A stretch of DNA of 64,000 bases from an uncultured bacterium. GTDB taxonomy: Bacteria > Patescibacteriota > Minisyncoccia > Phycocordibacterales > UBA9973. Shown here in pieces: positions 4,562 to 61,429 of the stretch (position 1 is its first letter; each line of letters opens with the position of its first letter). The translations under genes and the position numbers were made by a program. The notes below the pieces were generated by a model. It worked only from the letters and a program-made list of their open reading frames with translations. It had not been told where the DNA came from and did no database searches. The stretch spans positions 41,011 through 105,010 of the forward strand of contig CAITGV010000005.1 of the NCBI GenBank assembly GCA_903892035.1. Reading direction: 5' to 3'.

Positions 4562-5863
4562 TTATCTATTTAACCATTCTTTGTCCTGTCGCACAAGGAG
4601 GGTTTCAAAGTCCTCGGGGTTTGCCATAAGTTCAAGCACAGTGCGCTCCATGCGCATTCCTTGCGAACCTTTTATGAGAATAAGGTCACCTGGGAGAATA
4701 TTGTTTTGAATAAAAAGTCCTGCTTGTTGTGCTTCGTCGAGATGAAATAAATTTTGTTTCGGAAAACCAGCTCGCATTGCGCCTTCGTACATATGCTCAG
4801 CGCGAACTCCGACAGTAATTAAAATATCGCAATAATCTTTTGTAATTTCACCAATTTTTTCGTGTTCAGCGAGTGTATGTTTTCCAAGCTCAAGCATATC
4901 ACCCAAAATTGCAATTCGTCTGCCTGTAACTTCAATATTTTTTAATGTGATTAAAGCAGATTCACAAGCTACAGGTGAAGAATTGTACGAATCATCTATT
5001 ATTAAACTCCCTTTAATTCCCGAAAGTAAATGTAAGCGTCCAGGTGGAGTAATATAATTTTTCATCGATTGTATTGAATCAATCATATTTAAGTTTAGTG
5101 CGTAAGCTACTGAAAGCGCACCCAGGGCAGCATAGACATGATTTATACCTACAATATTTGAAACAGAAACAGGCAAAGCATTGCCATCGTATTCCAATTT
5201 GAAATTCATACCTTTTATTTGCTTTTGATTTTCTTTATTTTCATACCACAATTCTTCATTTGAAGCTTGAAGCATCGCACCAGAATTCATACCAAAATTA
5301 ATAGTTTTAACTTTAATTTTTTCTTTCAATTCCATCACCTTTGTATCGTCAAAATTTAAAATTAAAATTCCATCTTTTTTAACAGACTCCGCAAGTGCCC
5401 TCTTTTCTTCTATGACTGCATCAACATTTGGAAATGCTTCTACATGCACTGGTACATCTGGGAGTCTTGTAATTATCACAACATCTGGAGAAATCCATTT
5501 TGTAATATTTTTTATCGCTCCCGGCCTGTCTGCACCTAATTCTAAAATTAAATATTCTGGATAAATGTTTTTTTTAATTAAAAGCATAAAACCTTCCAAA
5601 ATATTTGCTATCCAAAGAAATGGATTATTCCAGCCATTTCCAAGTCCTAAAATTGTGAGTGGCACAGCAATGTCGGCATCGTAGCTTTTATCAATTTTTC
5701 TCACATATACAAATTGTGATAAAACAGTGTATATAGCATCTTTTGTTGAAGTTTTGCCCACACTTCCAGTGATAGCAATAATCTTTGGTTTATATTTTTT
5801 TAATACAAGGCGTGATTGCCATGTAATAATTGAAATAACTATTTTTTTAAAAATATTTTTCAT
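4562..5863 (-). CDS. murF: UDP-N-acetylmuramoyl-tripeptide--D-alanyl-D-alanine ligase
   Basis: 433 aa Mur ligase (ITGSVGKTSTKD P-loop; middle and C-terminal Mur ligase domains), located at the end of the dcw cluster. Confidence 0.8.
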   Translation of the reverse strand: MKNIFKKIVISIITWQSRLVLKKYKPKIIAITGSVGKTSTKDAIYTVLSQFVYVRKIDKSYDADIAVPLTILGLGNGWNNPFLWIANILEGFMLLIKKNIYPEYLILELGADRPGAIKNITKWISPDVVIITRLPDVPVHVEAFPNVDAVIEEKRALAESVKKDGILILNFDDTKVMELKEKIKVKTINFGMNSGAMLQASNEELWYENKENQKQIKGMNFKLEYDGNALPVSVSNIVGINHVYAALGALSVAYALNLNMIDSIQSMKNYITPPGRLHLLSGIKGSLIIDDSYNSSPVACESALITLKNIEVTGRRIAILGDMLELGKHTLAEHEKIGEITKDYCDILITVGVRAEHMYEGAMRAGFPKQNLFHLDEAQQAGLFIQNNILPGDLILIKGSQGMRMERTVLELMANPEDFETLLVRQDKEWLNR

Positions 5864-56082: not shown

Positions 56083-57570
56083 GTGCATAATGGTTATATG
56101 ACTGATGTAAACGAAATTTTTGAATTAGATGGTGTAATGAGCCAAAAAGACAAGGAGCTCGTCACTAAAGCTTACGAATTTGCTAAAAAAGCTCACGAAG
56201 GAACACTACGAAAAAGTGGTGATCCTTATTTTATACACGTCTTTGAAACTTCAAAAACTTTGGCGCGAATTGGGATGGATGCAAAAACAATTGCTGCAGG
56301 ACTACTTCATGACACACTCGAAGATACTACAGTGACAGAAGAAGAAATGGAAAAAGAATTTGGTATTGAAATAGTGAAGCTTGTAAATGGAGTGACAAAA
56401 TTGGGAAAAGTAAAATATCGTGGACGTGAAAGACACGTCGAAAGTTTGCGAAAATTCTTCATGGCTATGGCGGACGATTTGAGAATTTTAATAATCAAAC
56501 TCGCGGACAGACTTCACAATATAAGCACTATTGAACATTTACCCGAAGAAAAAAGAAAAAGAATTGCAATTGAAACAATTGAAATTCACGCTCGACTTGC
56601 GGACCGCATCGGTATGGGAATGCTCAAGGGTGACCTCGAAGACTACGCTTTCCCTTATGCTTACCCAAAAGAATATGCTGAAGTTGTAAAACTTTTGGAA
56701 ATTAGAAAAGCTACAAATGAAAAGGAGTTAATGGATGTTACAAATATACTTTCAAAAGAACTTACTGAACAAAAAATAAAAATATTTGAAATTGACCAAA
56801 GAGTAAAACATAAATACAGTCTTTGGAAAAAATTAGAGCGCTACAATATGGATATAGATAAAATCTACGACATTATTGCAATACGTGTTGTCGTAGGTAC
56901 AATTGGTGAGTGCTACCACACACTTGGTATAATTCATAAACTTTGGAATCCCCTCCCAGGACGCATCAAAGATTACATCGCAGTTCCAAAACCAAATGGC
57001 TATAGATCACTACACACTACTATTTTTACTGGCAATGGTGGAATATTGGAAATTCAAATTCGAACACAAGAAATGCATGCCGAAGCAGCATACGGTATAG
57101 CAGCGCATTTTGTATATAAAGAACATGGAATAAAAAATAAAAAAAAGAATGCTGAACCTGTAGAAAAAAAACTTGAATGGATTGACCAGTTGAAAGAATT
57201 GCAAAAAGTTGTCGCAGAACCGGCAAAATTTCTCGAACATTTAAAAACAGATTTTTTCCGAGATAGAATATTTATTTTTACACCAAAGGGTGATGTCGTA
57301 GATTTACCGGAAGACTCTGGCACTATTGATTTTGCTTTTGCAATTCACTCAGATATTGGTTTTCATGTATCAGGAGCAAAGATAAATGGCAAACTTTCAC
57401 CACTTTCGACAAAATTGAAAAATGGTGACATCGTAGAAATAATTGTTAGTAAAAATTCTCATCCAGCTTCTAAATGGCTCGACTATACAAAGACATCGCT
57501 CGCAAAAAGGCACATTCGTTCTTATCTTGAAGAAAATAGTTTGTATAATAAGTTTTTCGGAAAAAAGTAG
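56083..57570 (+). CDS. (p)ppGpp synthetase/hydrolase, short RSH (HD + synthetase + TGS domains only)
   Basis: 495 aa with an HD motif (HDTLED), a RelA/SpoT synthetase domain (..GYRSLHTTIF..) and a TGS domain (..IFIFTPKGDVVDLPEDSGTIDFAF..). No ACT/helical C-terminal region. Confidence 0.85.
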   Translation: MHNGYMTDVNEIFELDGVMSQKDKELVTKAYEFAKKAHEGTLRKSGDPYFIHVFETSKTLARIGMDAKTIAAGLLHDTLEDTTVTEEEMEKEFGIEIVKLVNGVTKLGKVKYRGRERHVESLRKFFMAMADDLRILIIKLADRLHNISTIEHLPEEKRKRIAIETIEIHARLADRIGMGMLKGDLEDYAFPYAYPKEYAEVVKLLEIRKATNEKELMDVTNILSKELTEQKIKIFEIDQRVKHKYSLWKKLERYNMDIDKIYDIIAIRVVVGTIGECYHTLGIIHKLWNPLPGRIKDYIAVPKPNGYRSLHTTIFTGNGGILEIQIRTQEMHAEAAYGIAAHFVYKEHGIKNKKKNAEPVEKKLEWIDQLKELQKVVAEPAKFLEHLKTDFFRDRIFIFTPKGDVVDLPEDSGTIDFAFAIHSDIGFHVSGAKINGKLSPLSTKLKNGDIVEIIVSKNSHPASKWLDYTKTSLAKRHIRSYLEENSLYNKFFGKK

Positions 57571-58852: not shown

Positions 58853-59878
58853 CTATATGAATATCGGCTCGGGTTCGAGGGTGATGCCGAATTTTTTTTC
58901 GACTTCAGAGATTATGAAGTTTTTTGTATAAAGTAAGTCTTCGTATGTGGCGCCATTTGGATTTGTAATTACGAGGGCATTGTTCTGATAAACAGAAAGC
59001 TTGCCTATATCTTTGCCTTTTAATCCACAACTTTCTATTAGGTACCCTGCAGGGATTTTTGAAAAGCCTGCGCTGGCAGGAAATATTTTCATATCAGAGT
59101 ATTTTTCTTTTAATTCATTGGCTTTATCAACTGAAATAATAGGATTTTTGAAAAATGAACCAACAGAAGGAATTTCCCTTGGATCAGGCAATTTTCTTGA
59201 GCGAATTTCAATTACAGCATTACGAACTTCGAGTGGTGTAGGATTTGGTATATTTCTATCAGCAAAATATTTTATAACATCTGCATATTGAGGAATTTCG
59301 TTTTTATTTTTCAAGAGTCTTAAAGTGACGGATGTAATGACATACCTACCTTTGTTTTCAGGTTTTTTGAAAATGCTATCGCGATAAGAAAATTCGCATT
59401 CTTCATTTGTAAAACTTTTAATTATTTTTTCTTCTTTATCGTATGCATCCAAAGAAATGAGTGTGTCTTTTATTTCTTGCCCATAAGCTCCAACATTTTG
59501 CACTGGTGTGCCACCGACAGTACCAGGAATTGCCGACATAGCTTCAATACCAGAAAGGCCCATCATAGATGTGCGCTCAACTACATAGTCCCAATTTTCA
59601 CCTGCTCCAATTCTCACCACAAATTCATATTTATTATCAGAAAGAATACAAAATGAAGAAATTTCGATTTTTATGAGTAGTTTATCCACAAGGGCATTTG
59701 TAAAAATAATATTTGATCCGCCACCGATAACGAGAGTTTGAATATTGTTATTTTCAGCAAAAATGTATGCTTCGGTAAGCTCCTTTGCGTTTTTTACCCT
59801 TGTAAAATAACGTGCTTTTGCATTCAATTTTAGAGTAGTAAAATTTGAAATATCCACATTTTCCTCAATTTTTAACAT
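58853..59878 (-). CDS. murB: UDP-N-acetylenolpyruvoylglucosamine reductase
   Basis: 341 aa with an FAD-binding PCMH domain (..LVIGGGSNI..) and a MurB C-terminal domain (..AGYLIESCGLKG..). Confidence 0.85.
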   Translation of the reverse strand: MLKIEENVDISNFTTLKLNAKARYFTRVKNAKELTEAYIFAENNNIQTLVIGGGSNIIFTNALVDKLLIKIEISSFCILSDNKYEFVVRIGAGENWDYVVERTSMMGLSGIEAMSAIPGTVGGTPVQNVGAYGQEIKDTLISLDAYDKEEKIIKSFTNEECEFSYRDSIFKKPENKGRYVITSVTLRLLKNKNEIPQYADVIKYFADRNIPNPTPLEVRNAVIEIRSRKLPDPREIPSVGSFFKNPIISVDKANELKEKYSDMKIFPASAGFSKIPAGYLIESCGLKGKDIGKLSVYQNNALVITNPNGATYEDLLYTKNFIISEVEKKFGITLEPEPIFI

Positions 59879-59896
59879 ATTGCAATTATATCATAT

Positions 59897-61429
59897 ATGA
59901 TATATAATAGGCAAATGAAAATAAAAAACGAAAAAGAACGCATCGGTAATTTTATTAAAACTATACGTGAGGGGCAAGGTTTTACTCAAGAAGAGTTTGC
60001 AAAAGCTCTATCTACCTCGCAAAGTGCTGTGGCTCGCATGGAGAGCGGTAAACAAAATTTTACAATGGAGCAACTCGAGAAAATAAGTACAGTATTGGGC
60101 AGAAAAATTCTTTCCCTTTCTTCTTCAATAGACTTTGAAATAAATGGTGGCAAAAAACTATCGGGTAGCATCGATACAAATTATTCAAAAAATGGCGCGA
60201 TCAATATGCTCTGCGCTACTCTCATAAACCAAGGCAAAACAGTGCTACACGGTATTCCTCACATCGAGGAAGTACACCGCTATATAGAAATAATGCAAAG
60301 TCTCGGAGTTTCCGTAAAATGGATTGGTGATGATTCACTTGAAATTATAGTTCCAAATAAATTAAATTTTGAAAGTATAGACAAAGATACGGTGGCAAGA
60401 ACTCGTTCATTTACATTTGTCGGAGCTCTTATTCACTATGCAAAATCATTCACTTACCCAAACTCTGGTGGTTGCAAAATGGGAGAGCGCACTATAGCTG
60501 CGCATAAATACGGCTTGGAAAAACTTGGTGTAAAAATTTTAACCAAAAAAAATACATATGAAATTTCTTATAAAAAATTAAAGCCAAATACTATCCCCCT
60601 CTATGAATCCAGCGACACAGGAGCTATCAATATGCTCATTGCAGCTGCAAGAATTCCGGGAATTACAACAATAAAATTTGCTCCGCCAAATTACCAGGTG
60701 CAAGACGTATGTTTTCTTTTAGAAAAAATGGGAATAAAAATTGAAGGTATTGGTACTACTACTCTCGTAGTGCACGGAGTCGAACAAATAAATAAAAATA
60801 TTGAACATTATAATAGTGAAGACCCTATTGAATCAATGTTTTTCATTACTGCAGGAATTGTCACAAAATCAAAAATAACAATAAATCGCTGCCCCATAGA
60901 ATTCCTCGAACTCGAAATGGAAAAACTTTTACATATGGGTCAAAAATACACAAAATCAAAACCCTATTTTTCAAAAAACGGACGAACGACTTTAGTCGAC
61001 ATTACGATACTCCCTTCAAATCTAAAAGCATTGCCGGACAAAATTCACACACAACCTTTCCCTGGAATTCAAAATGACAGTTTGCCATTTTTCGTGTCTA
61101 TCGCTGTTCAAGCAAAAGGCACCACGCTCATTCACGATTGGACTTGGGAAAATAGAGCGATATATTTTACTGAGTTAAATAAATTGGGTGCAAAAATAAC
61201 CCTTATGGATCCACATAGAGCCATCATAGAAGGCCCATCAAAGCTTCGTGGAGCGCAAATAGTCTGCCCACCTGCACTCCGCCCTTCTGCAACAATATTT
61301 ATCAGTATGCTTGCCGCCGAGGGAGTCTCGACTCTTCGAAATATTTACTCAATTGCACGTGGCTATGAAGATATTGCCGAAAGATTAAATTCACTCGGTG
61401 CTGATATAAAAATTTTGAAAGGCATTTAA
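59897..61429 (+). CDS. murA: UDP-N-acetylglucosamine 1-carboxyvinyltransferase with an N-terminal XRE-family HTH domain (fusion)
   Basis: Residues ~7-75 form an HTH_XRE domain (IGNFIKTIREGQGFTQEEFAKALSTSQSAVARMESGKQNFTMEQLEKISTVLG). The remaining ~420 aa are MurA/EPT fold, with the active-site Cys loop at YPNSGGCKMGERTI. The start may be at 59915 instead. Confidence 0.8.
   Translation: MIYNRQMKIKNEKERIGNFIKTIREGQGFTQEEFAKALSTSQSAVARMESGKQNFTMEQLEKISTVLGRKILSLSSSIDFEINGGKKLSGSIDTNYSKNGAINMLCATLINQGKTVLHGIPHIEEVHRYIEIMQSLGVSVKWIGDDSLEIIVPNKLNFESIDKDTVARTRSFTFVGALIHYAKSFTYPNSGGCKMGERTIAAHKYGLEKLGVKILTKKNTYEISYKKLKPNTIPLYESSDTGAINMLIAAARIPGITTIKFAPPNYQVQDVCFLLEKMGIKIEGIGTTTLVVHGVEQINKNIEHYNSEDPIESMFFITAGIVTKSKITINRCPIEFLELEMEKLLHMGQKYTKSKPYFSKNGRTTLVDITILPSNLKALPDKIHTQPFPGIQNDSLPFFVSIAVQAKGTTLIHDWTWENRAIYFTELNKLGAKITLMDPHRAIIEGPSKLRGAQIVCPPALRPSATIFISMLAAEGVSTLRNIYSIARGYEDIAERLNSLGADIKILKGI

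Follow-up and report, generated by a model that had tools for sequence, protein, structure and literature searches.

How flux into peptidoglycan is controlled at the step catalyzed by MurA (UDP-GlcNAc enolpyruvyl transferase) is an active question, and the known controls of this step are post-translational, i.e., ClpCP/ReoM-dependent degradation in Firmicutes and feedback by UDP-MurNAc. A gene from an uncultured bacterium of the Patescibacteriota raises the question of whether a MurA enzyme may, in addition, govern the transcription of its own gene. This gene lies in a 64,000-nucleotide stretch of contig CAITGV010000005.1 (the window, to which unprefixed positions refer), where it encodes an XRE-type helix-turn-helix (HTH) domain fused to MurA (HTH-MurA) and is arranged divergently from murB, the gene for UDP-N-acetylenolpyruvoylglucosamine reductase (58853 to 59878, reverse strand; NF000755, 343 bits compared to a cutoff of 277). 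An initial inspection of the letters (the sequence-only reading) had proposed an enzyme that doubles as the regulator of the first two committed peptidoglycan steps. Our comparative analysis supports this proposal, as a conserved candidate operator was found to track the fused HTH and to overlap the -10 boxes of both genes. HTH-MurA most likely binds this palindromic site as two molecules and would thereby repress murA, plus murB where the latter is adjacent.

As the operator of the fused HTH, we propose a perfect 18-bp palindrome, TATATCATATATGATATA (59887 to 59904), which was distinguished by its uniqueness and conservation and occupies the centre of the 36-bp gap between murB and murA (59878 to 59915) with half-sites of the form TATATCA-N4-TGATATA. 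A search of this gap for a palindromic operator had been advised at the outset, when attention was drawn to an AT-rich 'TATATAAT' element. That element is present; it corresponds to the right arm of the palindrome together with the TATAAT at 59903 to 59908. The palindrome was detected a single time in the 64 kb even when 3 mismatches were allowed (0.08 occurrences expected), and this threshold revealed no further operator in the window. Among 80 species-level genome loci that were fetched, 77 had 100 nt or more of upstream DNA, and 73 of these carried the palindrome within 200 nt upstream of the HTH with at most 3 mismatches. When metagenome loci were added and 4 mismatches allowed, it was present at 97 of the 98 fused genes with usable upstream DNA. 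Across 95 distinct loci, conservation of 79-100% was limited to the 18 positions and to a single T that lies two bases beyond them and belongs to the -10 box, with the flanks at background. Neutral intergenic DNA would not stay so conserved between loci whose proteins are 57-71% identical.

A consensus scan of the gap predicted a promoter for each gene with 10 of 12 matches, TTGCAA-17-TATAAT for murA (59880 to 59908, forward strand) and TTGCCT-18-TATAAT with an extended -10 TG for murB (59885 to 59914, reverse strand). The two -10 boxes (59903 to 59908, forward; 59885 to 59890, reverse) each overlap an arm of the palindrome. The ATG codons of murB (59878) and murA (59915) each stand 6 nt beyond their own perfect TATAAT, the spacing of start codon from -10 box was alike in most of the homologous loci, and no Shine-Dalgarno sequence was visible in the window before either start. 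This placement of the start codons 6 nt after the -10 boxes suggests that the murA and murB mRNAs are leaderless or near-leaderless. Because both -10 boxes overlap the palindrome, a protein bound to it would shut RNA polymerase out of both promoters. We infer that the regulation is repression, the sign of which is drawn solely from the overlap with the predicted -10 boxes. By the mechanism that we propose, two HTH-MurA molecules would occupy the two half-sites, the occupied palindrome would keep RNA polymerase off the back-to-back promoters, and the outcome would be negative feedback on how much of the first two committed peptidoglycan enzymes is made.

An explanation that makes no use of the HTH is that the palindrome is a promoter feature only, either a pair of extended -10 elements placed back to back or an AT-rich UP-like element, with the HTH otherwise employed or idle. 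The right half fits TGnTATAAT, both arms yield -10 hexamers in the window, and a TG-n-TATACT element is retained both at an unfused locus (L202) and at the fused locus L071. By contrast, the left arm is difficult to account for in this way. The upstream neighbor was co-directional with murA in 39 of 89 loci (e.g., an NRAMP-like gene in L035 and tRNA-Ser in L061 and L065), and the left half-site was still kept at these loci; thus, the left arm is not explained by a divergent promoter. The half-sites were also found to co-vary, with TATAGC..GCTATA in 11 loci and TATACC..GGTATA in L033, and this symmetric change falls at the free 'n' of the extended -10, a position that a mere promoter would leave unconstrained. 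In addition, the left arm is lost precisely where the HTH is absent or diverged. At L071 (3960 to 4100), the sole fused gene with a diverged recognition helix (DIDKTQVIAIEEGKE), the left half has been lost and the promoter half TGATATACT kept. The promoter-only explanation also leaves aside that the same palindrome stands beside a homologous HTH in unrelated toxin-antitoxin (TA) operons, as described below. We consider it unlikely.

The distribution of the palindrome among more distant relatives followed that of the fused HTH. Each of the 7 distant fused clusters (Nonomuraea, P0128, P0133, P0135, P0136, P0172 and P0178) carried it at the promoter of the gene itself or of its operon, and in Nonomuraea it takes the form of an AT-rich ATCTCATATGTGAGAT located 12 nt ahead of the ATG in a genome of 69% GC. 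By contrast, none of the 4 unfused relatives (P0121, which is 63% identical, P0123, P0124 and P0129) had the palindrome in its upstream DNA.

The reverse search, in which metagenome contigs were screened for the exact 18-mer, gave at least 120 loci. Among the matches listed, 20 were directly upstream of HTH-murA, 1 was beside a stand-alone HTH with the same helix, and 19 adjoined two-gene operons for a Gp49 toxin and an XRE antitoxin. These operons encode a Gp49-family HigB-like toxin of about 125 amino acids (aa) (PF05973, E 3e-19) and an XRE antitoxin of about 100 aa, the HTH of which is 50% identical to that of the window protein over 52 aa (E 4e-17). The identical palindrome was located at the promoter of such operons in metagenome loci L124, L148, L149, L163, L166, L185, L102, L103 and L191, as well as on predicted viral contigs of 50-53% GC (L224 and L230), and it often follows directly after a TTGACA -35 box. 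Since two unrelated gene contexts share both the HTH subfamily and the palindrome, they provide independent evidence that this HTH reads this palindrome. HigA-type antitoxins are known to bind palindromes as dimers and in this way to repress the promoter from which they are themselves expressed (PMC6987408, PMC7340258), the Gp49 family is that of HigB (PMC5906591), and XRE regulators are typically autoregulatory dimers (PMC12565409). The shared module suggests that MurA acquired its DNA-binding domain and operator together, by capture from a HigA-type antitoxin of a Gp49/HigB operon. As a separate observation, the Gp49 toxins often begin with MIYN, from an ATG within the palindrome.

The antitoxins also allow for an arrangement in which another XRE protein, for instance a TA antitoxin of the same specificity, binds the operator and the fused HTH serves as a competitor or decoy. 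Antitoxins with a near-identical recognition helix and an identical operator do occur in the same kinds of sample. However, such an antitoxin gene was found neither in the window nor among the 80 genome loci, and a free regulator would not demand that the operator follow the fused HTH, as it does in 7 of 7 fused clusters compared to 0 of 4 unfused relatives, with L071 in agreement. We regard a separate binder as quite improbable. HTH-MurA itself is not a HigA antitoxin: it has neither a toxin partner nor the neutralizing extension. No Gp49/HigB homologue was detected in the window (best tblastn E 0.58), no Gp49/HigB toxin gene was found beside the 80 genome loci, and about 9 residues precede the HTH of the fusion compared to about 40 in the related antitoxins. 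HTH-MurA shares with the HigA antitoxins of Gp49/HigB operons its HTH subfamily and an identical 18-bp promoter palindrome, and differs from them in that its HTH is joined to a 430-residue enzyme.

The HTH domain has the properties expected of a working sequence-specific DNA-binding domain, as we infer it to be from its sequence. Pfam HTH_3 (PF01381) was matched at aa 20-71 of the 510-aa ORF (open reading frame), i.e., 59954 to 60109 on the forward strand, with E 8e-13 and 48.6 bits compared to a cutoff of 23. In the AlphaFold2 (AF2) model, helices were predicted at residues 2-26, 31-37, 42-49 and 57-67 with a per-residue confidence (pLDDT) of 74-87; this helical bundle and the HTH_3 profile place the window protein in the XRE/Cro-C1 family, the closest solved relatives of its HTH being MBF1-like proteins and HipB. 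The domain is joined to MurA by about 8 residues, with a low-confidence linker at residues 73-75. The recognition helix, TSQSAVARME, is nearly invariant across homologues whose overall identity ranges from 100% down to 33%. A different use of the domain is conceivable, in which the HTH is not a transcription factor but a vestigial or protein-interaction module (nucleoid tether, oligomerization domain or neutralizer of a Gp49/HigB-type toxin). This would agree with the homology to antitoxins and with the general capacity of XRE domains to act as interaction modules, and the AF2 model, which presents a separate domain on a short linker, is silent on partners. Yet it is the base-contacting helix that is the best conserved part of the fused HTH in the homologue alignment, the operator co-occurs with it, and both the short N-terminus and the lack of a Gp49 homologue in the window speak against toxin neutralization. 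Such a non-DNA role appears improbable.

Symmetric co-variation would preserve base pairing as well as protein contacts, and the palindrome could in principle be an RNA or DNA hairpin with a role, e.g., in attenuation, replication or the stability of the mRNA. A hairpin of this kind is indeed part of the RNA fold predicted for 59880 to 59925. The fold is, however, weak (-7 kcal/mol, z -2.0), with 6 of 200 shuffled sequences folding equally well, and the predicted -10 box within the palindrome would leave most of the palindrome untranscribed. The central ATAT, which would form the loop, is moreover conserved in sequence. A hairpin in place of a protein site is very improbable.

Several points weigh against autorepression by HTH-MurA and have to be set beside the evidence above. 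The support is wholly comparative. The right palindrome arm coincides with the extended -10 (TGnTATAAT), such that the promoter alone may explain that arm. Canonical MurA enzymes are generally monomeric, and the dimeric DNA binding that we propose for HTH-MurA would need pairing that is either templated by the DNA or mediated by the HTH. In the reverse search, about 80 among the matches listed adjoined neither HTH-murA nor a TA operon, many of which are probably due to chance, as the motif is AT-rich and the database large. A helix-operator recognition code was examined within the fusions, where the helix variant TTQS (S to T in TSQS) was associated with a T to G change in the half-site that yields the operator variant GC..GC (12 of 12 compared to 1 of 84), and was rejected, as this association apparently reflects a single clade and is broken by antitoxins with TTQS or TKQS beside the canonical operator. 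No other murA homologue was found within the window, and it is this 64 kb that the check for a sole murA covers. Finally, a divergent murB was present in only 25 of the 80 genome loci, the most distant among them. Regulation of both murA and murB, as put forward in the sequence-only reading, is therefore supported by the operator in the window and is not general with respect to murB; murA autoregulation is likely to be the conserved core, with murB co-regulated only where it is adjacent.

Other occurrences of the palindrome or of similar sequences were noted. Multiple exact copies of the 18-mer were detected on some contigs without a nearby HTH-murA or TA gene (3 copies in L109; 2-3 each in L105, L143, L150 and L226). 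A similar palindrome (TATATCACGTGTGATATA or CATATCACCTATGATATA) was located about 10 nt before a thioredoxin-reductase-like gene (L026, 276 to 293; L014, 251 to 268), which could be another target, the site of another regulator, or chance. Near-palindromes 1.4-1.7 kb upstream of murA in many loci (L061, 2431 to 2448; L014, L018 and others) were considered as second operators and dismissed as a coding coincidence in a TfoX-like ORF, where they encode the peptide EYI[MV]YDI.

We next turn to the gene itself. Positions 59897 to 61429 of the forward strand form a single unbroken ORF of 510 aa, and Pfam and NCBIfam domains confirmed that HTH and MurA are encoded in one continuous frame, as first read from the sequence. 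The start of the gene had been placed at 59897. While the ORF does extend to this ATG, the true start is probably the ATG at 59915, giving a coding sequence of 504 aa (59915 to 61429), since ATG 59897 sits within the conserved palindrome and is in frame in few of the homologous loci, whereas ATG 59915 lies 10 nt past the palindrome in keeping with the usual spacing of 8-11 nt in homologous loci. A database protein (P0001) of 504 aa that is 100% identical to the window protein likewise begins at the residue encoded by ATG 59915. The gap to murB, given beforehand as 18 to 37 bp, is 18 bp or 36 bp depending on which of the two ATG codons is used.

The exclusion of a chimeric join had been advised. 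Both domains were present in 120 of 120 best database homologues (67-72% identity, 492-526 aa; the best of at least 8000 matches) and in 80 of 80 genome loci. The prospect that an assembly or frameshift artefact had linked a small HTH gene to murA drew no supporting point, and the identical architecture recurs in thousands of independently assembled proteins as well as in isolate genomes of Nonomuraea. An assembly chimera was thus ruled out, and we attach next to no probability to an artefact of either type.

The remainder of the protein is a complete, if divergent, MurA. The MurA domain spans aa 80-507 (60134 to 61417, forward strand) as delimited by NF006873, its identity is supported by matches in the PDB (E down to 6.5e-51) and by Foldseek, and EPSP_synthase (PF00275) was matched over its full model at aa 83-497 (E 2e-44). 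By NCBIfam, the protein scored 323 bits against the MurA subfamily NF006873 (cutoff 297), 310 bits against the equivalog TIGR01072 (cutoff 392.7) and 237 bits against NF009470 (cutoff 552); having passed NF006873 while falling short of the stricter TIGR01072, it is classed by sequence as a divergent MurA. The AF2 model (mean pLDDT 84.8) consists of a helical N-terminal domain, a short linker and a MurA body, and the latter aligned by Foldseek to solved MurA structures with target-normalized TM-scores of 0.85-0.91. Pfam, the AF2 model and Foldseek agree on the two-domain fold of EPSP synthase and MurA.

The presence of a full-length MurA with its catalytic Cys loop had been noted at the outset and was borne out, the loop reading SGGCKMGER at 60464 to 60490 and the substrate-binding residues being kept. 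For residue assignment, the window protein was aligned with an E. coli MurA sequence (P0A749 numbering) that reproduces the known residue positions. By this alignment, E. coli K22, R91, C115, R120, D305, R331, R371 and R397 correspond to window K98, R170, C193, R198, D394, R420, R462 and R488, respectively, with the codon of the catalytic cysteine C193 at 60473 to 60475 (forward strand). K98, R170, C193, R198, D394, R462 and R488 were invariant in 20 homologues. We propose that the MurA domain is catalytically competent. The window gene thus combines, at the level of sequence, an intact enzyme, a DNA-binding domain and an operator at its own promoter, as would be expected of an enzyme-repressor. 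Compared to the stand-alone MurA of E. coli and E. cloacae (PDB 1uae, 1naw), HTH-MurA has the same fold (TM-score up to 0.91) and has kept the catalytic residues; it differs in about 75 extra N-terminal residues that include the HTH, in its identity of 26-28%, in a score below the TIGR01072 cutoff and in an Ala for D369. This Ala (A460 of the 510-aa ORF, 61274 to 61276, motif PPALRP) is invariant in HTH-MurA. Substitution at D369 of E. coli MurA is associated with fosfomycin resistance.

The fusion is widespread. A scan of one genome per species revealed at least 105 relatives in Patescibacteria, and the 80 genome loci derive from metagenome-assembled genomes of Nomurabacteria, Paceibacterota, Parcubacteria and Zambryskiibacteria. 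Thousands of metagenome proteins share the architecture, and fused proteins were detected down to 33% identity by cluster-representative search. The 50%-identity representative library is unfit for counting fused clusters, as the neighborhood of the window protein is represented there by the unfused P0121. One fused cluster, of 246 members, is formed by cultured actinomycetes of the genus Nonomuraea, and RefSeq labels its members MurA or 'helix-turn-helix domain-containing protein'. In Nonomuraea sp. NEAU-A123 (JAHFZZ010000002.1; L203, 3971 to 5530), HTH-MurA is intact with its active-site Cys, and the gene adjoins that of a phage-type integrase; the Nonomuraea protein is probably an accessory copy that was horizontally acquired. 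It had been anticipated that a common and already annotated architecture would lower the novelty of the locus, and this is the case: the fusion is common, is routinely annotated and is not in itself new to databases. Full-text searches of the literature found no paper on the HTH-MurA fusion; three candidate accounts (PMC8066302, the Lipocone preprint and PMC12565409) proved to be unrelated. As far as we found, what is new is the operator, its putative antitoxin origin and the dead paralogues, the fusion architecture being already in databases; likewise, the position of the operator on two putative leaderless promoters and the presence of dead-enzyme regulators near cell-wall genes appear to be undescribed.

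Evidence from two further groups of loci extends the putative regulon. A further palindromic site, TATCTCATATATGnTATA, was detected directly upstream of murC in the clade of intact fusions that has diverged the most (L074, 2707 to 2724; L075, 2778 to 2795; L077, 2096 to 2113; L078, 1941 to 1958; L080, 2669 to 2686), which suggests a murA-murB-murC mini-regulon in the L074-L080 clade. The second group consists of paralogues that appear catalytically dead. Proteins P0128, P0133, P0135, P0137, P0172 and P0178 retain the recognition helix and have lost the residues equivalent to C115, R120 and R91; the Cys loop and the arginines that bind PEP are gone, with R371 replaced by His and R397 by Lys or Ser. 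The genes for such HTH-MurA-like paralogues were located in L204 (4001 to 5503), L208 (3498 to 5003), L209 (4001 to 5530), L210 (4001 to 5467) and L207 (1474 to 2952), and in all five the palindrome is directly upstream. In L204, L208 and L209, the paralogue and a stand-alone catalytic murA point away from each other, and the palindrome lies in the gap between them. The surroundings of these three genes are rich in cell-wall functions: in L204, the stand-alone murA and then murB are on one side, opposite ddl and a Mur ligase; in L208, each side has a Mur ligase, and one side also the stand-alone murA; and in L209, the stand-alone murA and then murB are opposite a Mur ligase. In L207 and L210, the paralogue follows a relA/spoT-like gene, upstream of which murB is found in L210. 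By their sequences and neighbors, the dead paralogues look like dedicated regulators descended from the bifunctional form, and retention of the whole MurA-like domain hints at a role for it in sensing or assembly.

These observations allow a broader but tentative scheme, which we think possible yet would not favor. In it, operator binding would be tuned by the ligand that the MurA domain has bound (UDP-GlcNAc, phosphoenolpyruvate or UDP-MurNAc), which would couple precursor flux to expression of murA, murB and, in some clades, murC; duplication would have given rise to the dead MurA-fold regulators of peptidoglycan-precursor clusters; and the module would have come with its operator from a mobile HigA-type antitoxin. 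MurA binds its substrates, and solved MurA complexes with UDP-MurNAc among the listed PDB matches reveal that the MurA fold also binds this pathway product.

As to known systems, the best reading of the sequence is that HTH-MurA is a self-repressing bifunctional enzyme, for which BirA and PutA would be the closest functional parallels. BirA of E. coli, the repressor of the bio operon, is an active biotin protein ligase with an N-terminal HTH that, as a dimer on a palindromic operator overlapping divergent promoters, controls its own pathway. HTH-MurA is similar in being an enzyme with an N-terminal HTH and in having a palindrome between divergent promoters that overlaps both. By contrast to the XRE type of HTH-MurA, the HTH of BirA is winged, and the enzyme and pathway are unrelated; furthermore, DNA binding by BirA is driven by dimerization induced by biotinyl-5'-AMP, whereas a ligand switch for HTH-MurA is only proposed. 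PutA (a flavoenzyme of proline utilization) and NadR (NMN adenylyltransferase) are likewise autoregulating enzyme-repressors, i.e., trigger enzymes that carry a DNA-binding domain, with PutA acting on the divergent putA-putP region. PutA differs from HTH-MurA, which has an XRE HTH, in using a ribbon-helix-helix and in switching by membrane association on reduction. To our knowledge, a sensor domain of the MurA/EPSP-synthase fold is not among the known classes of enzyme-derived regulators. The dead paralogues of HTH-MurA resemble MocR/GabR, the ROK repressors and NrtR in that an HTH and an enzyme fold are kept without the residues of activity, here near cell-wall genes; unlike all of these, the window gene looks catalytically intact. 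The trigger-enzyme concept has been reviewed (PMC6524683), and our literature searches found no trigger enzyme for peptidoglycan synthesis.

With respect to control at the MurA step, the locus points to a compact alternative, in which a large clade of reduced-genome Patescibacteria would use an enzyme with its own repressor domain on its own promoter. It yields an operator sequence concrete enough to be tested, predicts a small regulon (murA, murB and murC), and presents a natural series that begins with an active enzyme-repressor and ends with a dead-enzyme regulator. It also exemplifies how the HTH and operator of a toxin-antitoxin system may have been recruited by a housekeeping gene. Culturable Nonomuraea share this architecture and operator, which makes the hypothesis testable without culturing Patescibacteria.

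Additional features of the neighborhood were recorded. Bearing on the fragmented dcw cluster mentioned in the sequence-only reading, one Mur ligase gene was noted in the window, at 4571 to 5803. A RelA/SpoT-like gene recurs near the murB/HTH-murA pair, in the window (56083 to 57570, forward strand) and in L075, L100, L108, L207 and L210, and is accompanied by parB in the window, L075, L100 and L108; a link of (p)ppGpp metabolism to this locus is possible. In L204 (5493 to 7082), a D-Ala-D-Ala ligase fused to Peptidase_C39_2 is encoded directly downstream of the dead HTH-MurA-like gene.

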